Source: a virus (taxonomy: Duplodnaviria > Caudoviricetes). Taken from it: a stretch of 64,000 nucleotides of DNA. The notes beneath the pieces are model-generated. The model saw only the letters and a program-made list of their open reading frames with translations, was not told the DNA's origin and did no database searches. Shown here one piece after another: positions 3,245 through 43,016 of this stretch (the first letter of the stretch is position 1; each line of letters starts with the position of its first letter). The DNA is taken from positions 1-64,000 of IMG/VR virus record IMGVR_UViG_3300002307_000018. One strand, 5' to 3'. Made by a program: the position numbers and the translations under genes.

Positions 3245-3283
3245 TAAATAGTGAACTATAGACTAATCCACTTAATGTATTTA
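3245..3283. promoter_or_regulatory. Face-to-face pair of late-type TAAATA promoters
   Basis: TAAATA on + at 3245-3250 and on - at 3278-3283, between the divergent starts at 3234 and 3317. Resembles the T4 late promoter TATAAATA. Confidence 0.6.
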
Positions 3284-3316
3284 GTCTGTTATTTTTCGTG
3301 TTCAAAAGGAACAACA

Positions 3317-6683: not shown

Positions 6684-6964
6684 AGCCAACTCAGTGCAAA
6701 CAAGACTGCCTTTTCTTCATCTTCGATATCAACGTAGATACCATACTTGCAATCTGTCGAGCTACCGTCATTAAGTCTGTACATTATTTCCCATCCATCA
6801 CCCTGTGCTTGAGTATACATTTTATCATCTCCAACGTGTCTTTTCATTTTGTTCCAATCATCTCCGTGAAAATGTGCAGAGTCAGATGGCCCAATGTGTT
6901 CGATCATCCATATGATCATACTTACTTGTACACGCCCGTGATCGCTAACGTGCAATCGTGTCAT
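6680..6964 (-). CDS. Small paralogue, LFALSW family
   Basis: Ends IEDEEKAVLFALSWL; ATGA overlap with the gp46 stop. Confidence 0.7.
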   Translation of the reverse strand: MTRLHVSDHGRVQVSMIIWMIEHIGPSDSAHFHGDDWNKMKRHVGDDKMYTQAQGDGWEIMYRLNDGSSTDCKYGIYVDIEDEEKAVLFALSWL

Positions 6965-11788: not shown

Positions 11789-11802
11789 TATTTAGCTAAA
11801 TA
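11789..11802. promoter_or_regulatory. Palindromic back-to-back late promoters
   Basis: TATTTAGCTAAATA is a perfect 14-bp palindrome giving TAAATA on both strands between divergent genes. Confidence 0.65.
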
Positions 11803-16069: not shown

Positions 16070-19000
16070 ATGGCAGAGAATACCACACGAATTGTAGGAA
16101 CACCCAACAACTATAAAGCTGATCGTGGAGCGGCAACGCTTATGAACATGCCAATCATTGGCGTGGTCAAAAACAATATCGACCCTACGCACAGTGGTCG
16201 CATTCAAGTGTATCTTTCACAGTTTCAATTTCCTGATCCTAACGACAGTGCCAATTGGGTCACAGTTTCGTATATGTCACCCTTTCACGGAAGCTCTGGA
16301 AACAATAACAATCCAAGTCCTTCTGCCACAACCGATGGATACGGCAAGTATGTAGGCAACCCGCAAAGTTATGGGTTCTGGGCAAGTGCTCCTGACATTG
16401 GCAGTGAAGTGCTGTGTATATTTGCCAACGGTGACCCACAGCAGGGATATTATATTGGTTGCATACCAAAAGCAGGTGTGCTAAGCATGACTCCATCATT
16501 GGGCAGCACGTCAGCAGTTGTGCCCAACAGTGCTGAAGCAAAAGCATACGGCGGAGCAGACAGACTGCCAACGGGCGAAGCCAACTCCAACAACCCAACG
16601 ATTGACAATAGTGGCTCAATCAACACTGATCCCAAACCTGTACAATCATATCAAGCTGCCATTTTGCAACAACAGGGCTTGTTGCGTGACAATGATCGTG
16701 GAACAATATCATCATCAGCAAGTCGTGAATCACCCTCACGAGTGTTCGGCATGTCAACACCAGGCGGCCCAATATACGAGGGCGGATATACAAACGCAAC
16801 AATCGGTCAAGCTGCCGTTGACCCTGCAACTCCTGATGCAAAGCTGGCACAAGTCGGTCGCACAGGCGGTCACTCGTTCACAATGGATGACGGCGATCTT
16901 GAGGGTCAAAATCAACTTATGCGTCTCAGATCATCAGCGGGTCACATGATCCTGATGAATGACTCAGCACAATCAATGTTCATGATTCACGCCAACGGTC
17001 AAACATGGGTCGAGATGGGTGCTGAGGGCACAATCGACCTGTATTCGACCAACTCTGTGAACATTCGCTCGGAAGGTGATCTGAACTTTCACGCAGATCG
17101 TGACATCAACATGCATGCCGCAAAAGACTTCACTGTGTACGCTGACAACTTCAATGTCGAAGCAGACACAAACATGAACGTCAGAACCGGTGCCGACTAC
17201 TCGCAGTATACCGTGGGCAAACACACGCTGAAAGTTGACGGAGCAATGGCGTTGGCAAGCAAGGGCGAAGCATCGCTTGCATCATCGGGCACAACATACC
17301 TCAACGGCACAAAAATCAATCTCAACACAGGCAGCGCATCGACGACTCCTGAGGAAGTCAAGGTGATCACAAAGTCAAATCACCCTGACACAACATACTC
17401 GACCTCAAAGGGCTGGATGTATCCGTCACCTGACGCACTGCTGTCAGTGACAAGTCGTGCTCCAACACATCAACCCTATATCGGTGCCGGCAAGGGCGTT
17501 GACATCAAAGTCAAAAATCAAGTTGACAGTTCAGTGCCAGTGACCACAAAGAAAGTTGATGAAATCAACGCTGCAACTCCAAACGTGCCCAACAACCCAA
17601 CCACGCCCACAATCACAGGCACAGTTCCTCCGGTCAAAGCGTCAAACCCATTGCCAAACATGAACTCAGCAGCAGTGACAGCACTTGCAGGACAACAAGC
17701 GGCAATCAACTCGACAATGCCAAGCGGGCTTCCACCTGCCAAGGCAATCGCAGGCTCAACAGTTCGTGCGGCAAAGTCAGCAGGCACACCCACTGCACCT
17801 CAAATCTCAACGTTCATGCTTGGAGATGTCACGCCCTTGGGAGAAAACACACCACAGGATCCGCTGGGCGACGCAATCGCAGGTCTTCAGCTTGGCATTG
17901 AGCCAGACAGCAAGCGTGGCATTGGTATCATCGACGGCAACGCAGGTGTCACAATCTATCAAGCAACACTTCCAGGTTCAATTTTGAAACCAGGATGTCA
18001 ACCCTTGCTGCAAGCACGTCTTGCACAGGGTATGCCCTATCAGTATGCACTGCAGGGTCTTGTCACTGGAAACTATGGAGCTGTGAACCCATTGCAAGTG
18101 CTGCAAAACAATAGTGTGCAACTTGCAGCGGTAGGGTTCGCAATGAACACTGTGTCGCAAAGCTTGTACGATCAAGGATACTTCACAGGACAAGAAAGTG
18201 CAGCACAAGCAGGCGGTCTTGTCATGGCTGCATCAAACTTTGGTCTGATTCCGCAAGTCACATATATCAACGGACAGGGATACTCCACTGCAGGCGTGAT
18301 TGCAACAGGCGCACAACTTGCCGGTATAACATACGATCTCACAGGGAAAGTATACGACATGGTTGCCGCTGGAAACTTTGCCGGCAACTTGTCAGACGCA
18401 ATTTCAAACGGTGTCGAGGGTCTTGCAAACTCAATCGGAGACGCAGTTCAGAACACGCTGAACGCAATCGGTTCAACACTGAGCAACATTGCCAACGCAC
18501 TTGAGGGCACACTGCGATCAGCATTCAAAGCTGTTGAGGCATCATACAAAGTTCTCACCGAAGACGTGCCAAATTATTTGGGCGGAGTTGTGGCAACAAT
18601 CTCGACCAATCTTGAGGCAGCATCGGCAAAATACGACAGTGCTCAACGTGAAATCGAAATCAATCAGATCATATACGACTCAGCACGTTCAGCATACAGA
18701 AACGATGCGTCAGATGAAAATGCACAAGCACTGCAAACTGCTGAAGCAGCACTTGTCAACAGTCGCAAAGATGCAGCGAAAGCAAGCTTGTCATTCTTGA
18801 CGGGCAGTGCTGTTCAAAACACCAACAACGACGTTCAACAGTTGGGCGAACAAGTCCCTCAACCTGTGACCACGGCAAACAGCGGCATGAACGCACTGCC
18901 AGGCGGTGCTGGAGCAATCGTCAATCAAGTCACGCCAAGTGGACAGTCAATTCTATCACTGCTCAACTACAGCAGTGCTGCACAAAACGCATTGAACAGC

Positions 19001-19771
19001 GCAGGGTTGCCGCTTGGTATGAGTGCTACACAGTTCTTGAACCCAGCAATCTATGCAGGCAATCTTGTGCAGGGTACGATCTCTGCTGCAAACGCATACG
19101 TGTACAAGTATGCAGCGCCAGCGTTCAATGCTGTGAACACCGTGACTGCACTGACAGGAGGATCAATACCAGCAACATACGTGATCTCAAACACAATTTC
19201 TGGCATTGTCAGCACACTGCAAACGTCAATTTCTGCCATTGGATACGGTGGTCAGATCAAACCTGTGTCACAAGCAACTCAGACGTTCTACAGAACAACA
19301 ATCACAAGCAACACTGGACAACTGATGAATGACAGTCGCATACCATTGCCAATCTCTGCCACCTATGTTGCCAAAGATGACAACTCAAAATCACAAGACA
19401 CATCAGTGGCAGACAAAGTTCTCAAAGAGCAAAACGAAAAATTGAGAAGAATCAGCGACTTGAAGCAAACTATTGCCGACACACAAGACGGTATTGTTCG
19501 TGAAACGCTTCTCTATGAAAAGAACCCATCTGATCTTCAAAAATATCGCATTGAGCAATTGCAAAAAGACAAAGCAAACTATCAAAAGAGTCTTACAGAA
19601 GCAGAAGCAAGCTACTCGTCAACAGTCAAGGGTCAAAGCAGTCCTCCTCAACCACAGTCTGCATGGTCAAAATGGTGGAACGGAGATAAATCGGATACGA
19701 GTAAATACTTTCAGTGGGACGAAACTCCACAGCAAAAGTATGAACGAATTGGACCAGCATATCTAAGGTAA
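16070..19771 (+). CDS. gp5: Central spike protein (gp5/VgrG-like OB fold and beta-helix) with long C-terminal extension
   Basis: IGVVKNNIDPTHSGRIQVY...SYGFWASAPDIGSEVLCIF...GGHSFTMDDGD...RLRSSAGHMILMND, followed by beta-strand repeats. Confidence 0.8.
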   Translation: MAENTTRIVGTPNNYKADRGAATLMNMPIIGVVKNNIDPTHSGRIQVYLSQFQFPDPNDSANWVTVSYMSPFHGSSGNNNNPSPSATTDGYGKYVGNPQSYGFWASAPDIGSEVLCIFANGDPQQGYYIGCIPKAGVLSMTPSLGSTSAVVPNSAEAKAYGGADRLPTGEANSNNPTIDNSGSINTDPKPVQSYQAAILQQQGLLRDNDRGTISSSASRESPSRVFGMSTPGGPIYEGGYTNATIGQAAVDPATPDAKLAQVGRTGGHSFTMDDGDLEGQNQLMRLRSSAGHMILMNDSAQSMFMIHANGQTWVEMGAEGTIDLYSTNSVNIRSEGDLNFHADRDINMHAAKDFTVYADNFNVEADTNMNVRTGADYSQYTVGKHTLKVDGAMALASKGEASLASSGTTYLNGTKINLNTGSASTTPEEVKVITKSNHPDTTYSTSKGWMYPSPDALLSVTSRAPTHQPYIGAGKGVDIKVKNQVDSSVPVTTKKVDEINAATPNVPNNPTTPTITGTVPPVKASNPLPNMNSAAVTALAGQQAAINSTMPSGLPPAKAIAGSTVRAAKSAGTPTAPQISTFMLGDVTPLGENTPQDPLGDAIAGLQLGIEPDSKRGIGIIDGNAGVTIYQATLPGSILKPGCQPLLQARLAQGMPYQYALQGLVTGNYGAVNPLQVLQNNSVQLAAVGFAMNTVSQSLYDQGYFTGQESAAQAGGLVMAASNFGLIPQVTYINGQGYSTAGVIATGAQLAGITYDLTGKVYDMVAAGNFAGNLSDAISNGVEGLANSIGDAVQNTLNAIGSTLSNIANALEGTLRSAFKAVEASYKVLTEDVPNYLGGVVATISTNLEAASAKYDSAQREIEINQIIYDSARSAYRNDASDENAQALQTAEAALVNSRKDAAKASLSFLTGSAVQNTNNDVQQLGEQVPQPVTTANSGMNALPGGAGAIVNQVTPSGQSILSLLNYSSAAQNALNSAGLPLGMSATQFLNPAIYAGNLVQGTISAANAYVYKYAAPAFNAVNTVTALTGGSIPATYVISNTISGIVSTLQTSISAIGYGGQIKPVSQATQTFYRTTITSNTGQLMNDSRIPLPISATYVAKDDNSKSQDTSVADKVLKEQNEKLRRISDLKQTIADTQDGIVRETLLYEKNPSDLQKYRIEQLQKDKANYQKSLTEAEASYSSTVKGQSSPPQPQSAWSKWWNGDKSDTSKYFQWDETPQQKYERIGPAYLR

Positions 19772-19787
19772 GAACAGGACAATAAAA

Positions 19788-20240
19788 ATGGCAACATATA
19801 TCGGATTCTCAACTGTAGGCGCAAATCAGCCTGATACAATCAACCGAGCAGGTCGTTTTGGTGGACCAGGATCGACCACATATCAGCCCAGACTTGGTCG
19901 CAAGTACGTACTCACTGACGAACAACTTGTGATCAGAGACTTGCTCAACGCACTGAGCATCAAGCAGGGTGACAAAGTTGGGCAACCTCAGTATGGAACA
20001 ACACTGTGGTCATATGTGTTCGAGCCTCAGAATGAAGCCACACAGCAATTGATCACAACTGAAGTTCGTCGTGTCATGGCATTGGACCCACGCATCATTC
20101 TCAACTCTCTTGGAGTGTATTCTCAGAACAATGGCATATTGTTACAAGTCGAAATGGCATTTTCACCGTTCAACAACGCAGTCACGGTTGACTTGTTCTT
20201 GAACAAATATGACGGAAGCATCAAGCAGTTGGCAAAGTAA
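19788..20240 (+). CDS. gp25: Baseplate wedge/sheath initiator (T4 gp25-like)
   Basis: LVIRDLLNALSIKQGDKVGQPQYGTTLWSYVFEP...DPRI. Confidence 0.85.
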   Translation: MATYIGFSTVGANQPDTINRAGRFGGPGSTTYQPRLGRKYVLTDEQLVIRDLLNALSIKQGDKVGQPQYGTTLWSYVFEPQNEATQQLITTEVRRVMALDPRIILNSLGVYSQNNGILLQVEMAFSPFNNAVTVDLFLNKYDGSIKQLAK

Positions 20241-20263
20241 GAAATCAACACGTTTTGTAGAGA

Positions 20264-20269
20264 TAAATA
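20264..20269 (+). promoter_or_regulatory. Late-type TAAATA promoter; equivalent sites at 23811, 36200, 36998/37002, 38909 and 60993
   Basis: TAAATA in short intergenic gaps directly upstream of structural genes. Confidence 0.6.
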
Positions 20270-20293
20270 CAAGACTACTGAGGTCATATATAA

Positions 20294-23200
20294 ATGCCAA
20301 CCACATCATCTTCTGGATCACTTACCAGTTCACTTGCTGGATCACAAACGAGTTCGCTGAGTTCAACTCGTCAAAGCGCACTGTTTGGTCTGCAAGACTG
20401 GACACGCATTTATGAAACGTATCGTCAAGCAAACTTTGTGTCATACGATTATGAGACACTACGCAAGACGTTTATTGACTATCTGACCACATACTATCCA
20501 GAAACATACAACGACTACATTGAGTCATCAGAGTTTGTAGCATTGCTAGACGTAATGGCATACATGGGTCAAGCTCTTGCTTTCCGTGATGACTTAAACG
20601 CACGTGAAAACTTTATCGACACTGCTGAGCGTCGTGATAGTGTAATCAAGCTTGCAAATCTTGTTTCATACAATCCCAAGCGAAACATTGAATCAAACGG
20701 TCTTGTCAAAGTTACAGCAGTATCAACATCAGAATCAATCTTTGACATCAACGGTGCATCACTTGGCAACTCAACAATTTTGTGGAATGACCCTGCAAAC
20801 CCAAACTGGCAATCACAATTCAACACCATTCTGAACGCAGCGTTTGTCAACAGTCAGCGGGTAGGCAGACCAGGAAACTCTCAAGAAGTTCTTGGCGTTA
20901 CAACCGATGAGTATACAGTCAACATTGTTCCAAATCAGACTCCAGTTATTCCGTTCAACACTCAAGTCAACGGTGTTCTTACCAACTTTGAACTGGTGTC
21001 CGTGACATCAGCAAATCAAACATACTTGTACGAGCTACCTCCTGCTCCAAGTGGTCAGTTCAATATGCTGTATCGCAATGACGGTCTAGGATACGCAAGC
21101 CCAAACACAGGTTTCTTCTTTTATTTCAAGCAGGGTAGTTTGCAAAGCTATGATATGTATTTTGTCGAGCGCATTCAAAACAATTTTCAAAACATTGATA
21201 TTGAAGGCATCAATAACTCAGATACATGGCTGTACAAGCTTAATGCCAACTTGACAATTTCAGAATTGTGGGACCAAGTTGAAAACTTATTCATCTCTAG
21301 CGGCAATGCACAGGGCAACTCGGCACAACCGATCTTTACAGTTGTATCACGAGCAAACGATCAGGTCACATACGTGTTTGGCGATGGCGTATTTGGAGAA
21401 ATACCTGTCTCAAATTTCAGAGCATACGTTCGTTCCGGCAACGCACTGACATACTCAATAGACCCAAGTGAGATGTCGGGCATTGTTGTCAACTTACCAT
21501 ACATTAGTAGAACAGGAAACAATGAAATACTGACATTTACATTCTCGTTACAAACGGTCAACAACACTGCTCAAGCTCGTCAATCAATTGCGGCAATCAA
21601 GGAACGTGCTCCTGCCAGATACTACACTCAAAATCGTATGGTCAACGGCGAAGATTATACAAACTTCCCATTCACACTGTACAACTCAATTGTCAAGTCA
21701 TCGGCGGTCAATCGTAGTTCAATTGGAGTATCACGTGGTCTTGATCTTCTTGATCCCACAGGCGTGTACAGTTCAACCAACGTCTTCGCAGATGACGGAG
21801 CACTGTATGTATCTGCACTTGACAAGACAGTCACGTTCTCGACACAAAGCATCAACTTTGCGGTTGAATTTTTGTCGGTAGAATTGCCAATCTTGCTGTC
21901 AAGTCCAGGAGCAGTACAATACTATCAGCAAAACTATCCAAGATACAGCGGTGATTATCCAAGCACAGTATCAGTTGATCAGCAAACATACTGGCAGCAA
22001 GTTACTATTGACAGTGCTGCTGTCACTGGATACTTTTACATTATCGATCACACTGGACAAAAGATTCCGGTACCTGTAGGCACATACTCGACTTACAACA
22101 TGCGCTATATCACACAGGGCGCACAACTTAAGTTTGTAGCACCCGCTGGTTTCTATTTTGATTCTAACAATAGACTACAACAGGGTATTGCCAATCCAAA
22201 TCTAGGACAAAAATATTTCATTTGGGTCGGTGTTGTCTCAGTTGTTGGCGATGGATACAACGGTGGCAGTGGTGCACTGCTCGATGGACTTGGCCCAATC
22301 ACATTGAATGCTTATGTTCCAAGCGGAGCATCGCTTGATGACAATCAAATCACCCCAACGGCAATTATTCCCGACTTCAGCAACACGTTCAGTCAGACAT
22401 TGGTCAGCAAGATACTTGACAAGATCAATTTGCAACAAGACTTTGCTCTTGCATTTGACAACAGCAAGTTGCTTACTGTTGATCGCTGGTCACTTGTACA
22501 GCCAATTCCAACAACAGTAACTCCAACTACATACTTTGTAAAGTTTATTGCAGACACCGCAAGCGGCAACTACATTGTATCTATCAAGAACACTGTATAC
22601 TATTTTGGTAGTGTCAGCGAAGTTCGCTTTATGTTCTCCGGAACACAAAAAGTATATGATCAAGCAAGTGGTCAAGTATTCTCTGACTTTGTAAATGTCT
22701 TTAAGAACAACTCAAACCCGCAAAATACTGGAACATTAGGTCTGGACTATATTCTAAATGTCACAGGACAAGCCATTCAAAGTGATGGCTATCCAGATGA
22801 CTATCAAGTACAAGTAAGCAGTGTCAACTTGACCACAGGATTCTCATTTGATCCAGATTTCTTTGCTGAGATTGTAGGAACAAGTCCAACTGCTTATGTA
22901 TTCTTTGGTGTTTACAAAGACTTGAATGATTTGTATCGCACACAAGTATTGCCAGCCAATCTTGTCAAGTATGCTTATACAACACTGGCAGCAGTGCAAA
23001 ACGTAGTGTATGAATACCCAGCGGGCACAGTGTTTTATTGCTCAGCGCAAACAAGCACATCAGGTCTACCGGTATTCTATCAATCTGCCATTGTACCTGC
23101 GACCAATCCACCAATTCTACAATTGAATGATGTGACCACGCAGTATCTTGTGACCAAGGGTCGTGGAGCATTGAACTTTCAGTATCGTCATAACAGTGAC

Positions 23201-23788
23201 AACACCACTCGTATCGATCCAGCAACAACAAACATTATTGATCTGTACATTGTGACTCAAGCGTACTACACTCAGTATCAAAACTGGTTGAATGATACTA
23301 CTGGCACAGTACCACTACCATCGCAGCCTACGATTGATGAATTACAGCAAGCATACGGTGATTTAGACAGCTATAAGATGATCTCTGACTCAGTGATCTT
23401 GAATTCGGTGACTTTCAAGCCATTGTTTGGAGAAAAAGCGGCACCTGCGCTACAGGGTAAGATCAAAGTTATTAAAAATCCTAGTGTAGTTGTAAGCGAT
23501 AGTCAAATTGTCAGTGCAGTATTAAGTGCTCTGAATCAATATTTTACAATTGACGTATGGGATTTTGGATCAACGTTCTACTTCTCAGAACTAACTGCTT
23601 ACTTACACATGCAGTTAGGTACATTGATTAGTTCTGTTGTGCTTGTGCCTAACAATCCTAATCAGACATTTGGTGATTTGTATGAAGTGCTGTCACAGCC
23701 CAATGAAATTTTTGTCAATGGCGCCAACGCTAATGATATTATCGTGATTAGTGCTCTAACTCCAGCAAACTTACAACGCGGAATCTAA
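20294..23788 (+). CDS. gp6: Baseplate wedge subunit (T4 gp6-like)
   Basis: SYDYETLRKTFIDYL...DYIESSEFVALLDVMAY...ENFIDTAERRDSVIKLA...RYYTQNRMVNGEDY. Confidence 0.85.
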   Translation: MPTTSSSGSLTSSLAGSQTSSLSSTRQSALFGLQDWTRIYETYRQANFVSYDYETLRKTFIDYLTTYYPETYNDYIESSEFVALLDVMAYMGQALAFRDDLNARENFIDTAERRDSVIKLANLVSYNPKRNIESNGLVKVTAVSTSESIFDINGASLGNSTILWNDPANPNWQSQFNTILNAAFVNSQRVGRPGNSQEVLGVTTDEYTVNIVPNQTPVIPFNTQVNGVLTNFELVSVTSANQTYLYELPPAPSGQFNMLYRNDGLGYASPNTGFFFYFKQGSLQSYDMYFVERIQNNFQNIDIEGINNSDTWLYKLNANLTISELWDQVENLFISSGNAQGNSAQPIFTVVSRANDQVTYVFGDGVFGEIPVSNFRAYVRSGNALTYSIDPSEMSGIVVNLPYISRTGNNEILTFTFSLQTVNNTAQARQSIAAIKERAPARYYTQNRMVNGEDYTNFPFTLYNSIVKSSAVNRSSIGVSRGLDLLDPTGVYSSTNVFADDGALYVSALDKTVTFSTQSINFAVEFLSVELPILLSSPGAVQYYQQNYPRYSGDYPSTVSVDQQTYWQQVTIDSAAVTGYFYIIDHTGQKIPVPVGTYSTYNMRYITQGAQLKFVAPAGFYFDSNNRLQQGIANPNLGQKYFIWVGVVSVVGDGYNGGSGALLDGLGPITLNAYVPSGASLDDNQITPTAIIPDFSNTFSQTLVSKILDKINLQQDFALAFDNSKLLTVDRWSLVQPIPTTVTPTTYFVKFIADTASGNYIVSIKNTVYYFGSVSEVRFMFSGTQKVYDQASGQVFSDFVNVFKNNSNPQNTGTLGLDYILNVTGQAIQSDGYPDDYQVQVSSVNLTTGFSFDPDFFAEIVGTSPTAYVFFGVYKDLNDLYRTQVLPANLVKYAYTTLAAVQNVVYEYPAGTVFYCSAQTSTSGLPVFYQSAIVPATNPPILQLNDVTTQYLVTKGRGALNFQYRHNSDNTTRIDPATTNIIDLYIVTQAYYTQYQNWLNDTTGTVPLPSQPTIDELQQAYGDLDSYKMISDSVILNSVTFKPLFGEKAAPALQGKIKVIKNPSVVVSDSQIVSAVLSALNQYFTIDVWDFGSTFYFSELTAYLHMQLGTLISSVVLVPNNPNQTFGDLYEVLSQPNEIFVNGANANDIIVISALTPANLQRGI

Positions 23789-23841
23789 AAAGCTTGCTTT
23801 TTAGTGAGACTAAATACTAGTATCATAGGTACAATGAGAAC

Positions 23842-26800
23842 ATGGCGACTAACCAGATAAGAACACTTGATTTCCTTCCAGAAGTCTTTCAAACAGAGAC
23901 TAACGCACAATTTTTGGCTGCGACACTAGATCAACTAGTAGCACAGCCCAAGATGAATCGTGTAGAGGGCTTTATTGGTCAAAAATATGGTTACGCTGTT
24001 GAAAAAAATGATCGCTATGTCGTAGAACCTACACAAACACGCTCTGACTATCAACTTGACCCGTCAGTTGTGTTCTTGAAACCTGAAACTCAAAAAGCTA
24101 AAGACTTTATAAACTATCCCGGCATGGTAAACGCACTAAAGCAACAGGGTGCTGTTACCAAAAATAACAATCGATTGTTTGAAAATGAGTTTTACTCTTG
24201 GGATTCGTTTGTCGATCTAGATATGATCGTCAACTACTCACAGTACTACTGGATTCCAAACGGTCCCGATGCTGTTAGCGTGACTACAGCAACCATATAC
24301 AACACACAAAACTACAAAGTCGCAGACAATGGCAACTCATACTCGCTGACCGGCTTCACACAAACAAACCCAACAATCACATTGCTTCGTGGTGGTACAT
24401 ACACATTTGAAGTTGATCAAACATCACAATTTTGGATTCAAGGTGTTCCTGGATTAACAGGCTATGGCATCAATCAAAACATTTCCACTCGTGAAGTGCT
24501 TGGTGTTGACAACAACGGCGCAACCGCAGGAACAATCACATTCACTGTTCCACAAAAAGACGCTCAGCAACAATACAATCTGTCTGGTAACTATTCCACC
24601 GACATTGTGACAACACTACAGTTCTCTGACATTGATGGTCAAACTACAACCACAGTTGGAAACATTGACGGCGTGACACAGCTTGACGGCAAGACACTAA
24701 TGTTCTACAACAACGGTGATTTGACCACACAGATATACTACTATGCTATTAGTGTTAATTCTATCACCAACATTATCACATTGACTCCTGTTGCAACAAT
24801 CATCAACAACGAACGCATTGTAGCAACCAGCGGAACAACTTGGGTTGGCCGTCAGTTTTACCGTGATGATACCGGTCTGATCAACATTGTTCCATATCTG
24901 TCTAGCATATTAGACAGACTGTATTATCAAGATGGCAGCAACGCACGTGCGTACGGCATTATCAATATTGTTGATAGCAACGATACAAACGCAATCAATC
25001 TTGACGAAATATTGGGTCACTCAAGTTATATTTCTCCAAACGGAGTTGACTTGATCAACGGTCTTAAGATTGTATTCAACTCTCCAACAATTCCAGAACT
25101 GTACAGCGGCAATGAATACTATGTTGAAGGCGTAGGATCAGCAATTGATTTGATTCCTGTATCTGATATGCTGGCAGTTGAAACAAAAACTCCTCCGCTA
25201 TATCTTCCGCTTCAGCAAGACTACATTGTTATCAATCGTGACAGTCGTGATCGCAACGCATGGAGTCGTGGAAATCGTTGGTTCAATACTCAAGTCATTG
25301 ATGCAACAATCAAATACAACGGACAACTATCAACATTACTTGACAATATTGCTACTCGTGCTGTTCGCCCTATCATTCAATTTGATGGCAATTTAGGTTT
25401 GTACAATTACGGCACAAAGTCATTGGGCTTTGTGGATCTATTTGACAATGTGACCACTGATGCTTTTTTGCAAGTTGTGGGTCAGACTACCTACACAATT
25501 GACGGAGTAGTTCTTCAAACAGGGCAAACAGTTGTATTCAATGCCGACACCAATGAGGGCGTTCGTCAGTCTGTATATACCATTGGTTTTGCACCTGTGG
25601 GTCCTAATGACTCGCTTGTCTTGACACTGACTCCAACACCTCGCATTCGCTGGTGGCTTGAGACTGCAAACTCAACACTTGATGCAAGTCTTGAGATCAA
25701 TGCGGTCAACAACGATCAAATTTATATTGCATCTGGACAAACATATGCTGGCACTGCTTGGAGATTCTCAAGACTACTGACTGACGATCCTCAAGACGGC
25801 AGCTGGGTATACGCACAGCAAAAGACATCAACAAATCAAGCTCCGTTGTTTGACATATACGACGAGAACGGCTTTTCACTGTCAAATCAGGCAATGTACC
25901 CATCATCAACCTTTCAAGGTTGCTATTTGTTCTCGTACACTTTGGGAACAGGCGCAACCGATCCTGTGTTGGGCTTCCCAATCGCATACTCAAGTGCTGC
26001 CTCTATCGGAGACATTGAGTTCACAGTCAATTTGAACAGTGACACATTCACCTATCAGCAAAATCTCAAGTTGATCACTGATTTGGTATCAATGGGATAC
26101 GTGTACTACTATCCAATAGTTGATCAACCTATTCAACGAACTGGATGGGTAGACGCTGCTGCGCCCTCAGTTCAAACTCAAGTGTTTGAGTTTGATGTCA
26201 CTACTGCTGGTACACAACTGTATATCTGTGATGTTCCTGCAAACATTGATACAGTGTGGAAAAACATTGTAGTGTACTACAACTCTGACATACTTGACCC
26301 ATCAAAATACACGGCAACTATTGACAGTGCAGCTAACACAACTACCATTGTGCTTGCAACTCCTACAACTGTCAATGATAAAATTACAATCTTGATTATC
26401 TCTGATGTTGCATCATCAACAGGGTACTACGAGATACCAACAAACTTGCAGAACAACCCATTCAACACCAACATTACAATTGTAAACGTAGGTGACTTGA
26501 AGAATCAATACATAACAATGTTCAACAACTCTCCTGACACAACAGGGCCAGTATTTGGACCAAACAACGTGTACAACTTGGGCAATCTCAACAAGTATGG
26601 CACAGCAATCATTCAGAACTCGGCATCACTGGTATTGCCTGGCGTATTCTTGCGTGACCCACAACTCAATGTGTTTGAAGCACTGCAATACAACAGTGAT
26701 CAGTATATTGACTACAAAACTTTGCTGGTATCATTGACAGATCAAAATGACTTTTCAATTTATACAACACCATCACAAATGTTGGACACAGTGTTGTATC

Positions 26801-29800
26801 AAATCACCACAGTCAAGAACAGCACTGACTCGTTCTTCTGGAGCGATATGCTACCAAGCGGTAGCCCATATGTTATCAACACATACTCAACACTAATTCC
26901 GCTGACAACAGTGACTTACCCGTTGAGCACAACATACAACTTTGCATCGGCAAATTTCAACGGTGTATTGGTATACTTGAACACAACAGTTAGTGGGCAA
27001 AAACAACAGTTTCAATTGATCAGCGGCACAGAATATGTGATCTCTGATATTTCTCCATCAGTGACAATCAACTATGCAATTCAAGCTGGTGATTCAATCA
27101 CGATCAAAGAATACAATCAAACATACGGAACATATTGTCCCAACACTCCAACAAAACTTGGACTGTATCAGTCATTTATTCCGCAAATTTATCTTGACAA
27201 CACATATACTGTACCAACTTACTTTTTGATTGGACACGATGGCAGCTACAACAAACTATACGGTACATATACCGATGGCGTGCTTTCAGATTTTCGTGAC
27301 AAAGTGCTGCTTGAATTTGAAAGTCGTGTATACAACAACTTGAAGATTAGCTCACCTGTTCCACTGACAGGCGACAAAGTTATTCCTGGACAATTTCGCA
27401 CAACTGATTATCTTTGGGAAGAAGTTTTGGAAATTTACCAAACAAACTTCTTGAAATGGGTTGGAGCAAATCGCATTGACTATAAGTCACAAGTGTACAG
27501 CAAGGCAAATCAATTTACATACAATTACAATCAAGCAACAATTGCACTGGACGGAGAATCACCTGCCACACTGATCAAGCAGGGATACTGGCGCGGCGTG
27601 TACAACTGGTTCTATGACACATCGAACCCAGCAAACGCTCCATGGGAAATGCTTGGTCTCACAGACGAACCCACTTGGTGGACACAACGATACGGCGCCG
27701 GCCCCTATACAAGTGACAACACATTCATGTGGGAAGAAATTGCCGCTGGATACATTTGGAATGACGGCGCACCCTATGTCAATCCGCTAAAGATCAGACC
27801 GCAACTTCTTGATGCACTGCCAGTCAACGCTGCCGGTACACTGCTGTCTCCGCTTGTCAACGTGGTAGGCAACTATAACTCATTGACGTTTCAACGTGAC
27901 TGGATCGTAGGCGATCAGGGTCCAGCAGAAACATCATACTTACGCTCGTCATCATGGCCGTTTGATTTGATGCGAATACTTGCGCTGACAAAACCAGCAC
28001 AGTTTTTCAACTTGAACGTTGATCGTGACTTATATAGATACAACACAACGTTTGATCAGTACCTATACAATGATCGCTATCATCTTGATCCACGTCAAGT
28101 TGTTGTATACGGCAACGGAGTTTCAAAAGCATCGTACATCAACTGGGTGGTAGATTTCATCAATCAGCGTGGAGTCAACGGTACTGACTATGTGACCACA
28201 GTGTTGCAAAACATTGACGTACGCTTGACATACAATCTTGCAGGCTTCTCGTCAAAACAATACTTGCACTTCTTGATTGAAAAATCAACGCCCAACAGTC
28301 AAAATAGTACGCTGATGATTCCAGACAACAGCTATTCTGTGCTGCTGTATGACAACCCTCCTGAAGACAAGATCATATACTCGTCAGTGATTGTTCAGCG
28401 TGTCAAAGACGGCTGGACAGTATGGGGCAACTCAAAGTTGAATCCATATTTTACACTGGCAGTTCCAAAAGGCGGAGTTGTCGAGCAAATATCACAGGGA
28501 AATGCCACAGTCACGGTATCAAATGAGTTCTATGACAATAAGACTGTTTCAATTCCTTACGGTCAAGTATTCTATACAATACAGGGTGTCTCTGAATTTA
28601 TTCGCAGCTATGGTGTGTATCTTGTTCAGCAGGGTATGATATTCAACTACAGCGTTGACACAAAGACATTTGACTGGACTCAAATGATACGTGAGTATCT
28701 TGCATGGGTTCAACAAGACTGGCAAGTTGGTTCAACCATTGCACTGAACCCGTCAGCAAAGCTCAACACTGTGTACAGACCAGGATTGATTGTTCAACCA
28801 TTGACGCTGCAACAGCAGAACTTTGTGCTGAATCAAAACTTGGTACCCTTACAAACGCAAAATCAAAACGTCATTCGTGAACAAGAAACATTCACAGTTC
28901 AAGTGCTGAGTGAGGGCGATACAATTGCTTTCACCAACTACAATCTTGCGTCAATTGAACATGCAGTTGTGTTTGACAACACCACAGTGTTCAACGATAC
29001 AATCTATGATCTTGTGACCGGTCTGCGCCAAGAACGCTTGTTGTTTCAGGGCAACAAATCGGCAGAATGGTCAGGATACATGAATGCACAGGGCTTCTTG
29101 ATCAACGAAGACAACATCAAAGAATGGGTTCCAAACGTCAAGTATCCATCAGGCGTGATCATCACGTACAAGGGACAATACTGGGTTGCAAATCGTTTGA
29201 TTGAACCGCAAGCTGAGTTCAACAAAGAACAATGGTACCCAACAACATACGACAAGATTCAAACAGGTCTGTTGCCCAACCCATCGACAAACGCATACGA
29301 GTCGCTGTACTACTATGACACATCACACCCATCATTGTACACAGACGAAGACTTGTCATCGTACTCACTGATCGGTTATCGTCCACGTCAATACTTGGCA
29401 GACGCTGATTTGTCAGTGACAACTCAGGTCGGTATCTATCAACAGTTGATTCAGTACAAGGGTACAAACTTGATTGCCAACGCATTCAAAAAGGCAGACT
29501 TGTTGCAGGGTCAAATCGACTATGATCTCAAAGAGAACTGGTCAATCAAGACAGCAACATTCGGTTCAGTCAACAACTCAAACTTTGTCGAGTTTCGTCT
29601 TGACGAAACATTGCTGACTGGCAACCCAACCTTGATTGGATTCACTGACAATAGTGCAAATGTCGTGAGTGTTGAACAGAACATCAACATTGCAACTGAT
29701 CTGATCAATTGGGAAATGCCACCAAAAACGGCAAACTTCTTGCCACCCTACCCATTGGTATACAATGACGAACGTGGTCTACCTACCGCTGGTTACGTCA

Positions 29801-32800
29801 ATCTCAATGATGTCAAGTTCACAGCATACGAACTGGCTGATCTGAATCAAATCAAGTCAAACGTTGAAACACTGTATCGTTCAGACTGTATTTGGATCGC
29901 ATCATACCGCGGTTCGTGGAACGTATTCACACCAACATCAGTGCAAACACAGATCACAGAGTGCATCAACAACTTGAATGGCACAGTGACAATTACATTT
30001 GCACAAGCACACAATCTTGCGAAAAATGATCCAGTTATGATCTTCAACTTTGATGATCGAATCAACGGATACTATGAAGTTCAAGATGTTCCATCATCAA
30101 CGCAGATTGTAATCACACTCAACTTGTCAGCAGCAACGCTTAAGATCACTGCTCAAGGCTTGTGCTTTAAGCTTGTGTCACGTCGCTTTAAGCAAGCAAG
30201 TGATATGGTATACAGCACAGTACCGTACAGTTCGTTCTATGCACGTAATGCTTGGGTCGATGAGAACGACAAGAATCAATGGGCAGTATGGCAAGCAGCA
30301 CCTATCTATACTCCGATTCTATTTTCACTCACACAAACTACCGCTGTCAACAACATTGGTGCAGCAGTAGCGTACTCAACAGTCATTGGCACAGTGACGT
30401 CTGACCCGCTGAATGGTAAACTGGTCAGACAGTATCCTGATCCAACTGATACAAACGGCGGAGTGCTCACACAAACAATCACGCTGCCAGGAACAGCAAT
30501 TGGACAACAATTGGTTGCCAAAGGCAGCTGGCTGTTTGCAAGTGATTCAGTGCATGGCAAAGTATACGTGTTTCATGTTGACCCAACGTTCAACTACATG
30601 TATCAAGTATCAGTGATATCACAGCAAAACACTGGCGCACTTGCTGTGTCAAATGATCTGAACTGGCTGTATATTGGTGACGCATTAACACAATCGGTAA
30701 AAGTATACGGACAAATCGCAACAGGTGTGTACTCATTGGTCAACACACTTGTGGGCCCAACAACAGCAGAAGGATTCGGAACATCACTTGCAACAGATAC
30801 AACAGGCGCAAAGCTTATTGTCGGAGCACCTTTGGAGACAATCACTCCAACCGTAGGCACTCCTATCGACAACTGCGGTGCAGCATACGTGTACAATCGC
30901 AGTGTTGAACGTTTCACAGCAAACGGCACATCATACGTCTATCAAGTCTCGCAAACAATACCATCAGGATATGCACGAGTATATGTCAATGATGTGCTTG
31001 ACACACAAGTGCAAATCACAGGCGCAAGCACAGTAAGATTCATGACTACCGCTCCTGCATTTGATGACATTATTGAGGTGTCATACGGAGCATTCACACT
31101 GCAACAACGTATCACATCACAGTTCCCAATCAACGGCGGCAATTTCGGTCAGTCAGTATCGACCAACAAATTCGGCGCACAGTTTGTTGTGGGTTGCCCG
31201 AACGAACTGGCAACTGCCAACAACATTGCAAACGTACAGGGTGCTGTGTACAAGTATACCAATAGCGGCCAACAGTACGGCTCAATCACTGGCATAGTCA
31301 AGAAGCCAGCAGTGGGTGTGTTGTTCATTGACGGTTTCAAAGTCAACTTCAACGGTTCTGCTGCCGCAATTGCACAGCAAATCAACACTCAGACTCCATA
31401 CAACATTCTTGCGGTTGCACAGGGTACAGCACTGACAATCTCGGTGTACAATGCAAGTGTTGAAGAGATCAACAACATTGTTGACGTAACTGCTGACACA
31501 ACCACGCTAAAAAATCTTGGTTTGACACTGTACACTCAAACACAAATCATTACGTCACCAACTTATGATCGTGATGGCAACTTTGGATACATTGTTGCAA
31601 TGGGTACTGACAGTTCATTGATCGTAAGCAACCCAGAGGGCACACCCTATTCAGAAACAACGTTTGACAAAATCAATGTCAACACATACAATGGATGGGC
31701 CACAACCAACTGGGACATCAACGCTTGGGGTGATGACAACTATCAATTCTATGCATCATCAACCAGCATTGACACAGACACACTATTTGACAATGGCGCA
31801 ACAACATTCATCGATGGATTCCAAAACATAGGCGTGGTCTATGAGTTCAACTATCTACCAGCGGCAAATGAAAACATCATGAACCCAGGTCAGTATGTGT
31901 TTGGACAGTACATTGACTGGATCGACACAGACTCGATATCATTGCAACCAAGCTTTGGCATTTCAATTGCAAACAATGATGGAGTGATTGTTGTAGGTGC
32001 AAAAGACTGGTTCAACAACACTGATGGTCTTGTTGTGACATATGTTCCCTACAGTCAAGCAACCTCATGGTGGGTTGACAAAGCTCCATTGCCAATGGTA
32101 TCAGTCAACAACTTGAACAACATTTCAATTTACGACACCATCAACAATACTACGCTTGCGTATCTTGATTACATTGATCCAGTGCAGGGCAAATTGCTGG
32201 GTGCAGTCACTACAAACTTAGACTACATTTCAGCCACTGACCCAGCAGTATACAACAGCGGTGTTGTATGGACAGCAGATCATGTGGGTCAAACATGGCT
32301 TGACACAACCAACTTGCGTATGCTGAACTACAATCAGCCTGACTTGGTATACAACGCATCAAATTGGGGCAAAGCATTCCCGGGTTCATTGGCAGACATT
32401 TACACGTGGGTCGAAAGCCCGCTACAACCAGTTGAATATCAGGGCAACGGTATCATTGTTGACTTCAACAAGTATACTATCACTCGCAGCTATGATCGTT
32501 CAACCAATGCAATGGTCACCAACTATTACTTCTGGGTCAAGACTCTGAACACAATACCGCCTGGCAAAACACTATCTCCACAAGCATTGAGTCAGTACAT
32601 TCTAAACCCAATCAACAGCGGCATACCATTCTTGGCAGCACTGACTACCAATGCTATTGCGTTGATGAACAACAACACATCAATTCAGAACAACAGTTCT
32701 GCGCTGCATCTTGGATACGCACTTGGTGTATCTACCGATCAAAAGCACACATCATGGACATTGATTGAAGACAACAACAAGAATGAATTCTTGCCTGGAT

Positions 32801-35800
32801 TGCCATCAGCAACAAATCAACAGCCTACTGACTTGTATGCCAAGTTCTTGGACTCATTTGCAGGACAAACACGTCAAGGGTTAACATTGCCAAATCAACG
32901 TTTGCCCGTTCTAAATCGCTATGGTACCGATCAGTATCAAACAATGTTCGTCAATCGAGCTGTTGCATTGCAAAACTATATTGAGTACGCAAACAATATC
33001 TTGATCAAGTTCCCAATAGCAGAGTCACGCTCACTATACTTCTTGAACAAAAGCGGTCCGGGTTGGGACACAGCCAACTTCTACACGTTGGTTGACTGGT
33101 ATGCTCCTGAATACAGCTCAAAGAACAAAGTATTGTTTGAAGTGCAGTACTACAATGATTTGAAAAAAATACAACCAAACGAAATCATTCCAAACACAGA
33201 GTCATTACACATTGGTCTGCAAGAGGGCATGATTGCTCGTGTGACAGGTAATGCCAACGGACTATGGGAAGATTATGTATACTCTTCAGCACTGGGTTGG
33301 ACTCGCATTGCATTGCAAAACGGTACCGTTCAACTACTGTCTACCATTTATACTGAACTTACTGGTTGGGACGAGCAAAACTGGGACATCTTGGACTGGG
33401 ATCAATCTCTTGCAGAAGAAACATACTGGATCATTCGTTGGTTGAATGAAGAATGCTATATCAATGATCTGCAAATTGAGCGCAACAACTCACTAATCTT
33501 GATGTTTGACTATATTGCAAGCGAAGCACTACAGCAACAAAACTACTTGCCATGGCTCAACAAGACATCATTGATCAACGTCACACACAAGGTTCGTGAT
33601 CTGTTACCATACAAGAAATTCCAACAAGACAATCAAGAATTCTTGTCAGGATACTTGAACGAGATCAAGCCATTCCACGTCAAGATCAACGACTTCTTGT
33701 TCACATACAGTGCGTTCGACGAGTATCTTGCTGACCCAACTGACTTTGATGTGCCAGCAACATACAACACAGCTACCTCTCAGTTTGAGTCTCCTCAACT
33801 TGTGTACAACCCGCTGTATGTCAATCCCAACGAGTACTTGCCTACTGCTTCAATTTGGAAACAACCTGAGTATACTGAGTGGTTCAATCACTACGGTTTG
33901 TCAATCATTGATGATTTAGATGCCAACATACCAGCGGTAACAGTGATAGACGGTGCTCGTGGATACTTGACGGCTCCGATAGTCACAATATCGATTGACA
34001 CATCAGTTTTCCCTGCTCCACGAGTGGCGGCAGTACTGAACTCAGTATTGCTGGGCGATGCACTCAGTTCAATCACAGTTGCAAATCCCGGAAATGGATA
34101 CGCAACAGAACCAACAATGACAATTCAACCGTCATCAATCGTTGGACAGTTTGCCGCTGAAGATGTCAATACTGTATTCAACACAATTACAATCACTGCT
34201 CATCCATTTGAGACTGGTGATCCAGTAGTGTACTCAAGCGGCGGAATTACGCAACCTCCAAAAGGGTTGACACAAGCAACTTACTACTATGTTCGCTCAA
34301 TCGATGTCAACACAATTGCGCTGTATGATTCAAAAGCATCGGCGTTCAATTCTAACAAGTCAGAGTTCTTGGACTTAAATCGTATTGTCTTGGTAGATCA
34401 AGGATTTGGTGTCAACAACTTCTTGAGCGTTACCGCTGTGGCAACGTTTGCAACAACAAGCAAGCCTGTACGTGAGATCACAACTACAATCAAGTTTGAT
34501 CGTATATCTTATGGCAGCAAGATCACTGAGTGGTCACCAGCAGGATTCTATGCTGGACTATTGGTTGATATTGGCACAGAATCATCATCAACCTTGCTGG
34601 TTGACTCAACCTTACCGTGGGATTACTTGGCATGGGACGCAACTCCATACTCACCAGTAATGTTGGCAAGCGCACAGGGCGCACGATTCCCAATCACGTC
34701 AATCGACAACTATCAAACAGGTACTGGTGTCGTGACAATGAATATCAATTATGGAGAAACTGTTGTTTGTCCGGGACAATTGAATGGACAAAAAGTTGAA
34801 GTGTGGGCAAATGACTTTACATACGCATCATACGGTAGACCACGTTGGTCAACTAATCGCTGGTCACAAAAAGATCGTGGTCTGCTAGGTTGGAAAGACA
34901 TGAGAGAGTTTTACGTTCAGGTCAGAAGTTCAACTGAAATTGCGCTGTATTATGACGCAAACTTTAATCACCCTGTGCAACTGGCAGACTTTCCGTATGG
35001 CTCAGGCGACACAGTATTCTTGCCAGAACCGTTTACATTCCAACGCAGCATGGTCACCTATGCTGGCAAACTATGGAAGTGTGTAGTCAGCAATCGCAAT
35101 CCACAAAACACATTCAACTATGACGATTGGGAACAAATTTTCTCTGATGATCGTTCATTGACCGCGGCAGATCGTATTGCAGCGTTTTATGCACCAACAG
35201 TGAACATGACTGGTCGTGATCTACGTCAATTGATGAGTGGAATTGAGTATCCCGATGCAACATTCTTGGGCACACCGTTCTCGTACAGCAATCAGAATTA
35301 CGACATGACTCCATACGATAACAACTTGTATGATCAAGATGTTGTTTTTGATATTGATACCAACTTGACCAGCCCAGCATTCAATGCTGATCTGTTGACC
35401 AACCCAACCGTGTATGATGTACAGGGTGGAGTATTTCAACAGGGTTACGGCCCAGAAGAAATGGTGCCTGGACTTGTCACAGACACGCTTGAGTTCACTG
35501 TCATTACTGATCCTGCAACATTACCTGCTGGACAATACATTGATTTCCGTATTCAAGTTGATAAATTTGGAGCAGGCGCAATATACAACGTTAATCCGTT
35601 TACTCAAACTGTACTTGCACAAGACTTTGTATCAACGGGAACAATCAGTGATGTAATTTACGTAGACGACGTTACAAAATTAGTGTCAATTAACACACAA
35701 AATGTAACTACAAATAGTTCTGGTGTTGTGGTCATTACAGGCGTACTCAAATCAATGACAGTACCGATCACGCTTGATATTCCAAATGCATTTTCTGCTA

Positions 35801-42068: not shown

Positions 42069-43016
42069 ATGAGTGAATATATAAGCACAGATGAATATGT
42101 AGATGTAGCAGACTTAGATACCATCTATCTCTCCTATGACGAGCCCAAAAAGGAAGAATTCTGGGTCAAAATCAAGAACATGATTCCGTGGGCCAAACGT
42201 GTAGATAACGTTGATGGTTCGGATGCCGCGCACAAGGCAGCGGCAGCAATGAGTGAAACTGAGCGTTTCATACTGATTGACGGTGACAACATGCCCTCAT
42301 CAAAGTTCTTTGACATGACGCTGCACTTACACGAGGGCAATAAGAATGCACAGTTTCGCTGGCGTGCGTACAATCACGTGAACGGTCTGTTCTACGGCAA
42401 CGGTGGCATGAGTTGTTGGACACGCACATTCGTCAACAATATGCGTACACACGAGAACACAGATGGCAGTGACACTACCAATATTGAGTTTTGCTTTGAC
42501 CCACAGTACTGGGCAATGCACGACTGCTATTCAACCACATACATCAATCAATCTGCCAAACAGGCATGGCGTGCAGGCTTTCGTGAGGGTGTCAAGATGT
42601 GCACCAGAAATGGAACACCTCCAGCAACTCCACAAGATTTTATGCGTTGGGTTTGGCCATCTAACTTGACAAACCTATCAATATGGCATACAATAGGAAG
42701 AGATGTTGAGAACGGTTTCTGGGCATTACACGGCGCACGTTGCGGTACACACTACTTGATGCTGAACGATAACTGGGATCATACTGATGTGCGTGACTTC
42801 AAGAAGTTAGACCTACTGTGGGAAGATCATAAGAATGACACTGATGCGTACTCGCAAAAAATCGCCACAGAACTCAATCGACATCTTGGAACAAACATAG
42901 TAGAGTTCGATAGTAAACAAAGCAAATTCTTCAAAGACTATATCAGTAAGAATTGGAAGAACACGGGGCCAATGATACGAGAAACATATGGCCCACCACA
43001 ACAGGTGACTTGGTAA
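42069..43016 (+). CDS. GT-A-like glycosyltransferase (GT2-related)
   Basis: IYLSYDEP...RVDNVDGSDAAHKAAA...RFILIDGDN (DxD)...NGLFYGNGG...AWRAGFREGVK. Preceded by TATAAATA-N5-ATG. Confidence 0.6.
   Translation: MSEYISTDEYVDVADLDTIYLSYDEPKKEEFWVKIKNMIPWAKRVDNVDGSDAAHKAAAAMSETERFILIDGDNMPSSKFFDMTLHLHEGNKNAQFRWRAYNHVNGLFYGNGGMSCWTRTFVNNMRTHENTDGSDTTNIEFCFDPQYWAMHDCYSTTYINQSAKQAWRAGFREGVKMCTRNGTPPATPQDFMRWVWPSNLTNLSIWHTIGRDVENGFWALHGARCGTHYLMLNDNWDHTDVRDFKKLDLLWEDHKNDTDAYSQKIATELNRHLGTNIVEFDSKQSKFFKDYISKNWKNTGPMIRETYGPPQQVTW

Follow-up and report, generated by a model that had tools for sequence, protein, structure and literature searches.

The dinucleotide TpA is reportedly under-represented in bacterial genomes in general, as part of the dinucleotide signatures described by Karlin and Burge. 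CTAG and TAG are rare in bacterial genomes, and the rarity of CTAG in Escherichia coli is ascribed to very short patch (VSP) repair. Phage genomes avoid restriction sites and other defence motifs, which are mostly palindromes of 4-6 bp, or show a weak genome-wide depletion of protospacer adjacent motifs (PAMs) of clustered regularly interspaced short palindromic repeats (CRISPR) systems, while UpA and CpG are suppressed in RNA viruses of animals and plants. The closest described system is a codon-pair rule. Indeed, Tats, Tenson and Remm (2008, BMC Genomics 9:463; PMC2585594) reported a universal avoidance of nnUAnn codon pairs, stronger in ORFeomes than in whole genomes, and credited an earlier study with its first finding across three domains. 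According to these authors, the few exceptions start with GGUA, UGA is not involved and nnCAnn and nnGCnn are preferred; they proposed that out-of-frame UAA and UAG are misread by release factor 1, and the antisense component has no known mechanism. Avoidance of TpA and, on both strands, of out-of-frame UAA/UAG is one of the few codon-context rules common to all domains of life, and its cause is unknown. A literature search on TpA in phages surfaced only general codon-usage papers. Here we describe a purge of TAA, TAG and their reverse complements TTA and CTA (TAR and YTA, where R is a purine and Y a pyrimidine) from the baseplate operon of a T4-like jumbo phage that lives in freshwater and has not been cultured, IMG/VR virus record IMGVR_UViG_3300002307_000018. 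The window, i.e. the whole stretch of DNA analysed, is the first 64 kb of this record.

The record is a linear single contig of 264,637 bp with a CheckV completeness of 74%; all genome-level statements below refer to this 74% of the phage genome, and the capsid and sheath genes lie within the missing 26%. On protein search the phage is placed only at a distance from described ones, its wedge protein being 32% identical to those of RaK2/GAP32-type jumbo phages, and no DNA match to the tract was found among GenBank phages. More than 160 related environmental loci show 51-71% identity to it. The purged tract is the late baseplate operon, made up of the genes for a hub, a gp25-like protein, a gp6-like wedge and a giant protein, with the following features:

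16070..19771, + strand: baseplate hub gene, gp5/VgrG-like, 1233 amino acids (phrog_13211 'baseplate hub subunit and tail lysozyme', E = 1.3e-40; PF04717 as precomputed Pfam domain)
19788..20240, + strand: gp25-like baseplate wedge gene, 150 amino acids (phrog_43; PF04965 on the orthologue)
20294..23788, + strand: gp6-like baseplate wedge gene, 1164 amino acids (phrog_10646, E = 2e-256), with a moderate, patchy purge
23357..24200, + strand: unpurged patch spanning the wedge-giant junction, with a late-promoter-like TAAATAC at 23811 (observed/expected motifs per 180 nucleotides: 16/15, 14/13, 15/10, 13/14)
23842..36195, + strand: gene of a giant baseplate or fibre protein of 4117 amino acids, strongly purged from ~24.3 to 35.5 kb
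35545..36195, + strand: unpurged 3' end of the giant gene, where the tract ends (observed/expected motifs per 180 nucleotides: 15/15, 11/16, 6/12)

The sequence TAAATAC resembles a T4-type late promoter and is found at 11797, 20264, 23811 and 37002, that is 29-35 nucleotides 5' of the start codons at 11832, 20294, 23842 and 37031. Each kept copy forms a TAA island in or beside the purged tract.

Between 16380 and 34300 the four motifs occur 472 times (26.3 per kb), compared to a median of 1152 for windows of equal length in the record. The global minimum for that window length is 470, in the window starting at 16301, and the minimum outside 14-38 kb is 975. Kilobase bins with fewer than 25 motifs per kb are found only between 16 and 32 kb; the most purged core lies in the hub gene at ~16.3-19.4 kb, and the bin at 17-18 kb has 3 motifs against a genome mean of 62.6. 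The manual counts from which an earlier note on this DNA had drawn the observation proved exact, with 2 motifs in 17041-17700 and 6 in 29041-29700 versus 19 in 14041-14220 and 16 in 46801-46920.

Composition was controlled for in several ways. When synonymous codons were shuffled within each gene, keeping the protein and the codon usage of the gene, the hub showed 39 motifs for 127 expected (z = -8.5), the wedge 143 for 214 (z = -7.3) and the giant gene 353 for 647 (z = -17.9). Resampling of codons from genome-wide usage gave expectations of 233, 250 and 922 for the same three genes (z = -15, -9 and -24). The gp25-like gene has 2 motifs where 14.7 are expected. Furthermore, under a dinucleotide-preserving shuffle, in which the TpA count is fixed, TAR+YTA remained depleted at 20 versus 61.8 in 16380-19400 (z = -7.9) and at 199 versus 369 in 25600-34300 (z = -12.7), and RTAY was enriched in both segments (47 versus 18.5 and 221 versus 118.6), while two control regions showed neither the TAR/YTA deficit nor the RTAY excess. 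RTAY makes up 71-79% of the remaining TpA in the tract versus 23-32% elsewhere. Hence neither the G+C content at third codon positions (GC3) nor general TpA avoidance removes the depletion, and the claim that it goes beyond both is sustained. The range of motif counts that each protein would allow was computed by dynamic programming over synonymous codons: the hub core (16520-19420) holds 17 motifs for a possible minimum of 5 and maximum of 505, and the gp25-like gene 2 for a minimum of 0 and maximum of 82, whereas a control gene sits at 37% of its own range.

Closer relatives were found by a search with the hub protein, on which they share 92% (L091, a 355-kb contig), 80% (L092) and 83% (L093) amino acid identity with the window. 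L091 shows the same purge in the hub, wedge and giant genes, of the last of which it covers only the first 6 kb; L103, a 352.9-kb contig, matches the profile of the window but covers the giant gene only in its final 1.9 kb. Since the profile recurs in these two contigs, assembled independently from another sample, an assembly chimera is excluded. The tract is also covered, at ~88-97% identity, by lake metagenome contigs from three studies; this cover comes from contigs of four lake or sediment runs, whose depth does not rank genes and has no bearing on expression. L092 and L093 display a mild bias only, and 24 distant relatives have 60-130 motifs per kb in their homologous baseplate regions. 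Junctions with T at the third position of one codon and A at the first position of the next (T|A) give a similar view. In 80 relatives, 170 open reading frames (ORFs) are 900 codons or longer, and their observed/expected ratio for such junctions has a median of 1.04 and does not fall below 0.84; the minimum over 164 ORFs of at least 300 amino acids in related loci is 0.85. The capsid protein is conserved at 93-98% across the clade, and the capsid genes of two relatives are unbiased (T|A 41/43 and 38/44). The strong purge is thus, among the genomes compared, restricted to the window and its closest relatives, and the lineage specificity proposed earlier holds, L091 being purged, L092 and L093 mildly biased and 80 relatives free of it. 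A separate lineage-specific avoidance, perhaps restriction-related, was seen in L092, which over its whole locus has 23 AGCT for 84 expected; the window, compared over 6-30 kb (57/89), and L091 (64/87) do not avoid this tetranucleotide.

The avoided motif was then dissected. At the codon 3|1 junctions of hub, wedge and giant genes together, T|A is observed 269 times versus 557 expected (z = -18.8; control genes, 924 versus 905) and C|A is raised to 824 versus 514; in the hub alone T|A falls to 29 versus 91. The deficit is strongest before AA, weaker before AG and mild before AY. Indeed, the giant gene has 27 NNT|AAN for 131 expected versus 214 NNT|GAN for 114 expected, and the observed/expected ratio at the junction is 0.16-0.33 for NTAA versus 0.53-0.77 for RTAY. 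The depletion is present in every codon phase that offers a choice, both flanks act independently, and at the 3|1 junction the 3' neighbour outweighs the 5' one. NTA codons are fewer as well: TTA accounts for 0-0.12 of Leu codons versus 0.28 in unpurged genes, the leftover NTA codons precede pyrimidines, and AGA, TTA, CTA and ATA are all reduced in purged genes. The frequency of purines at four-fold sites before Tyr codons reaches 0.81 in the window, compared to 0.56 in L092 and 55% in control genes, which implies a 5'-side effect independent of the 3' base.

Relative to the L092 orthologues, the four motifs are the lowest of the 64 trinucleotides (TAA 0.30, TTA 0.47, TAG 0.51, CTA 0.59). Among tetranucleotides, YTAR ranges from 0.16 to 0.60, with CTAG at 0.31 and TTAA at 0.16, and RTAY from 0.62 to 1.21; the dinucleotide ratios are 0.66 for TA, 1.19 for CA, 1.23 for TG and 1.21 for GC. 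On the sense strand the deficit of TAR somewhat exceeds that of YTA. Strand symmetry, which had been claimed together with a tolerance of RTAY, is largely upheld, and the tolerance of RTAY is confirmed. TGA and TCA rise, TGA reaching 57-61 per kb in the other frames of the purged tract. The suggestion that the depletion explains the many shadow ORFs turned out to be weak: these ORFs are no denser in the tract, where stops over the five other frames only go from ~106 to 67 per kb, because TGA/TCA stay abundant and TGA rises.

Several candidate causes were tried and dropped. GC-biased gene conversion does not account for a change in which only TA falls while AA, AT and TT are unchanged. CpG avoidance was rejected, as neither NCG codons nor CG as a whole change; the C|G deficit seen on shuffling arises secondarily, from the attraction of C to |A sites under fixed codon margins. 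Selection for optimal codons was discarded as well, since the shift to C-ending codons depends on context and leaves T the preferred base before G and C. For mRNA structure, the predicted mean folding energy differs from that of L092 by only ~1-1.5 kcal per 120 nucleotides. Mimicry of late promoters is contradicted by TAAA being less depleted than TAAC/TAAT and by the absence of any TAAAT-type 5-mer among the 24 most depleted. A cost of premature termination that scales with length does not agree with other very long genes being untouched and the shortest gene, gp25, being the most purged. As a separate feature of the whole genome (e.g. G000:C1:79934-87913 and 16070-36195 of the window), every gene tested strongly avoids C|C and T|T junctions, whether it is purged or not (61 versus 170 and 176 versus 327 in control genes).

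Heterogeneity within genes persists after conditioning on the protein (p = 2e-4 for the wedge and p = 6e-7 for the giant gene), and the patchy, on-and-off character reported in the earlier note is hence real. The unpurged patches are 200-800 nucleotides long, notably at the wedge-giant junction, where the patch is common to L091 and L092, and at the 3' end of the giant gene. Local motif counts correlate with those of L092 (rho = 0.54), so the fine pattern is partly driven by the protein sequence. The gp25-like gene has 2 motifs in the window versus 21 in L091, and the nucleotide identity between the two falls to 0.79 there. Its amino acid identity is 0.87 between the window and L091, 0.93 between the window and L092 and 0.93 between L091 and L093; the closest gp25 to that of L091 is that of L093, and the closest to that of the window is that of L092. 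One exchange, of gp25, is thereby documented on sequence comparison and appears to break up the purge pattern. The earlier proposal that recombination with unaffected lineages had fragmented the tract is accordingly supported at gp25, and for the other patches we infer that a recombinant origin is probable. Directly upstream of the hub, an 845-amino-acid virion-protein gene (13520-16057, + strand) shares 62% amino acid identity between the window and L091, compared to 87-96% for neighbour genes, and looks like a swapped or hypervariable module.

A weaker depletion extends to other genes. The ratio of motifs to the genome codon-usage expectation is 0.44-0.7 in conserved genes, among them those for a DnaB-like helicase, DNA polymerase, SbcCD, ribonucleotide reductase, NAMPT, rIIA and a second hub-like protein, and 1.0-1.35 in accessory or unknown genes, three very long ones included. 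Genes with an orthologue in the distant relative G001 have a median ratio of 0.79 versus 0.99 for those without (p = 9e-4), and the depletion grows with conservation (rho = -0.39 with identity). Of 47 orthologue pairs, 46 show fewer motifs per kb in the window, which is partly due to its higher G+C content. Of the tracts enumerated in the earlier note, those between 16.4 and 34.3 kb are strong, while those at 3.4-3.8, 7.0-8.9 and 42.2-42.6 kb are depleted only to about half of background; the genes concerned are:

3251..4144, + strand: second baseplate-hub-like gene (phrog_150 'baseplate hub'), moderately depleted, with a ratio to the genome codon-usage expectation of 0.59
6961..9051, - strand: SbcC-like gene (phrog_77), moderately depleted, with 73 TAR+YTA observed versus 111 and 157 expected
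42069..43016, + strand: gene of 315 amino acids and unknown function, moderately depleted, with a ratio of 0.61, corresponding to the 42.2-42.6 kb tract

The depletion of the SbcC-like gene is common to the 92% and 80% relatives (T|A observed/expected 0.54-0.70 in the window, L091 and L092), and the 315-amino-acid gene has 34.8 TAR+YTA per kb versus 87.5 in its G001 orthologue. Between the SbcC and SbcD genes the window carries an ORF of 219 amino acids (9048-9707, - strand) that looks like an inserted gene; without it, L091 and L092 have both genes overlapping directly. Further along the phage genome, a region of very large genes (G000:C1:77000-97000) has a composition opposite to that of the baseplate operon, with a G+C content of 0.41-0.54, a TpA observed/expected ratio mostly of 1.0-1.2 and TGA/TCA mostly at 19-43 per kb compared to a mean of 47.

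We consider, with a probability of roughly one half, that the proximate cause of the pattern is sustained, gene-specific selection against TAR/YTA. Under this explanation, the synonymous sites of the operon would have lost, in one sub-lineage, almost all TpA preceded by a pyrimidine or followed by a purine, TAA foremost and then TAG, together with the complements TTA and CTA. In sequence terms, NNC takes the place of NNT before codons starting with A, and NTA is replaced by NTG, NTC or NTT; the surviving NTA codons precede pyrimidines, and four-fold codons before Tyr end in purines. The same pressure would act more weakly on other conserved genes, those of replication, recombination and nucleotide metabolism, and would hardly touch accessory genes. 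The unpurged patches would represent short tracts recombined in from relatives without the pressure. In kind, the process would be the universal nnUAnn avoidance, but at a much greater strength and active in this sub-lineage alone.

As to what might exert such selection, the near-symmetry of the strands, the independence of reading frame and the near-complete purge incline us slightly towards recognition of a 3-bp motif in double-stranded DNA, for instance by a host defence, over decoding or mRNA cleavage. A host defence reading TAR on duplex DNA and acting hardest on conserved genes could be, for example, a CRISPR system of type I whose PAM resembles TAR and whose primed acquisition has a hot zone near the operon; we hold such a defence to be distinctly unlikely. 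If it were true, the clade would constitute a natural on/off system, and the antisense half of nnUAnn avoidance would act at the level of DNA and not of translation. Selection against a short motif, which the earlier note had linked to a host defence, fits the data, with a host defence as one candidate agent.

The best surviving alternative, possible yet doubtful, is selection at the level of RNA or translation, in which transcripts would avoid UA(R)/(Y)UA either through an endoribonuclease of host or phage or through misreading by release factor 1, with a strength scaling with transcript limitation. The pattern is that of the nnUAnn rule, with its greater strength in ORFeomes than in genomes (PMC2585594), and UGA is not avoided and even rises. 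The stronger depletion of TAR than of YTA on the sense strand, the heavier weight of the 3' neighbour at the 3|1 junction, the reduction of AGA, TTA, CTA and ATA codons and the link between depletion and gene conservation all point the same way. The phage also invests heavily in translation, with 31 tRNA genes at G000:C1:202995-225627. However, the avoidance of pyrimidines before the forced TA of Tyr codons, being independent of the 3' base, is not explained by decoding. Moreover, in a 35-kb sample of E. coli the T|A junction index is 0.96-0.97 in ribosomal-protein and cryptic genes alike, meaning that the usual effect is far too weak and is not tied to expression there, and the capsid genes of two relatives show no effect. 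Finally, gp25, with 150 amino acids, is the most purged gene while genes of 2658 and 2441 amino acids are untouched, and the predicted folding of the mRNA is little changed. On the tRNA genes themselves, it can be observed that the set includes Leu-TAA, Leu-TAG, Val-TAC and Arg-TCT, the readers of codons avoided in the purged genes.

A lineage-specific, context-dependent mutation or repair bias from YTA/TAR to YTG/CAR is unlikely. It would be produced by a deaminase, a modified base or VSP-like heteroduplex repair and concentrated at recombination-rich DNA, and the earlier note had offered a mutator or base modification of this kind as the driver. The net change is indeed from TA to CA/TG, the strands are nearly symmetrical, the baseplate region recombines, and biased conversion acts like selection in turnover tests. 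Against this, a TpA-rich sugar/radical-SAM gene cluster at 45-58 kb, common to three genomes at 84-95% nucleotide identity, shows no directional loss of TpA: polarised singletons on the three terminal branches give losses to gains of 15:17, 12:10 and 46:37. Losses and gains being about equal, no genome-wide process that removes TpA is acting. A metagenome scan with a protein of this cluster returned only relatives of at most 52% identity. In addition, the four-fold T|A sites of L092 correspond in the window to C at 0.38, A at 0.26, G at 0.10 and T at 0.26, i.e. to A nearly as often as to C. No Vsr, C5 or N4/N6 methyltransferase, hydroxymethylase or DpdA was found in the 74% of the genome in the record, in which ThyA is the canonical equivalog and a Dam-family enzyme is the sole methyltransferase found. 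A plain mutator, besides, could not be confined to particular genes. These data, together with the turnover within the operon described below, do not support a mutator as the driver, and we infer selection, as opposed to biased repair, as the force.

Historical import of the operon from an unsampled relative with a TpA-poor whole genome, with no force acting now, is highly unlikely. Baseplate and fibre modules are commonly exchanged among phages, gp25 and the upstream 845-amino-acid gene are demonstrably swapped between close relatives, and the tract starts and ends near gene ends. Nevertheless, the operon gives no sign, at the level of its sequence, of a foreign ancestry. Its amino acid identity to L092, at 0.81-0.90 for hub, wedge and giant proteins and 0.93 for gp25, falls inside the range of the flank genes (0.57-0.91) or slightly above it, local depletion is uncorrelated with amino acid identity or with TA-neutral synonymous identity, and no purged donor was found among ~1300 hub homologues or 80 related loci. 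Furthermore, TpA gains in the operon are not above losses. The two are roughly balanced, at 26:34 and 29:28, though CA+TG outnumber TA four to one, and a relaxed operon would be expected, on sugar-cluster rates and our own scaling, to have made ~62 gains on the branch of the window, where 26 are observed. C before AA is likewise conserved. At Y-ending synonymous sites before AA, 164 have C in both the window and L091, 9 differ and 11 have T in both; the differing sites make up 5% before AA, whereas the share is 18% when G follows and 11% in the flank genes. The turnover of T within TAR is about three times that of T at other sites, and the turnover of C preceding AR is lower than that of other C by a factor of about 4.6. 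The operon stands at its own low-TpA equilibrium, currently maintained by a gene-specific force that is still acting, which fits selection or a selection-like biased conversion. The remaining alternative, an artefact or trivial effect of chance, amino acid content, GC3, general TpA avoidance or chimeric assembly, is excluded: although the hub is richer than the genome in G+C (0.49) and in Ala, Gly and Gln, and local counts correlate with those of L092, the depletion withstood every control at z values of -5 to -24, orthologues whose proteins are 80-90% identical lack the purge, and the tract is present in independent assemblies and lake metagenomes.

Sustained selection is itself faced with several difficulties. 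It does not account for the baseplate operon outranking the replication genes. This phage has three further very long genes (2658, 2441 and 1686 amino acids), all untouched. At TA-neutral sites the undepleted patches show no detectably higher identity to L092. The excess depletion of TAR over YTA could be caused by coding constraints or by an RNA-level component. Polarisation with L092 is noisy, synonymous sites being near saturation (four-fold identity ~0.46), and a biased gene conversion that depended on sequence context would look like selection in all the tests run.

Whatever the force, the clade offers a sharp natural contrast: distant relatives have no purge, those with hub proteins of 80-83% identity have a mild one, and two or three near-identical genomes have ~20 kb purged to near the minimum. 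This contrast is sharpened by untouched genes in the same genome and by gp25, which exists as purged and unpurged alleles in phages otherwise 92% similar. It is thus a natural system in which the cause of the nnUAnn rule could be found. From a practical point of view, such strong regional k-mer heterogeneity can mislead composition-based host prediction, the detection of horizontal transfer and gene calling in phages.

Compared with known systems, the purge resembles the suppression of UpA in RNA viruses in that UpA is lowered at synonymous sites, possibly as an escape from a host factor, but that suppression concerns RNA genomes, whole-genome effects and eukaryotic sensors, whereas here the effect is regional and in a double-stranded DNA phage. 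With the avoidance of defence motifs it shares the selective removal of a short motif from both strands in a lineage- or host-specific manner; here, in contrast, a degenerate 3-bp motif is removed over 20 kb of chosen genes. As in the TpA and CTAG signature of bacteria, TpA is depleted and CTAG and TTAA are among the most depleted tetranucleotides. That signature is genome-wide, however, and the depletion here is regional, gene-specific and maintained at fixed TpA count, with no Vsr/Dcm-type enzyme found in the record.

The nearest likeness is to the nnUAnn rule (PMC2585594), a known universal codon-pair avoidance that the earlier note had missed and in effect rediscovered; its observation is confirmed and its first interpretation partly supported. 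In both cases the T|A junction is avoided beyond codon usage, the motifs are out-of-frame UAA/UAG on the sense or antisense strand, RTAY-type exceptions such as GGUA occur, UGA is not avoided, and nnCAnn/nnGCnn are preferred. Unlike the rule as described, the effect here is several times stronger, with a T|A observed/expected ratio of 0.32 in the hub; it comes close to the theoretical minimum and also covers NTA codons. Nor is it a general property of the coding sequences of an organism, since it is absent in accessory and other large genes, in 80 relatives and in two capsid genes. It is limited to some genes of one sub-lineage, interrupted by patches of apparent recombination, in a wider clade that does not follow the rule. 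Taken as a whole, the purge is an extreme and regionally restricted form of a known compositional rule.

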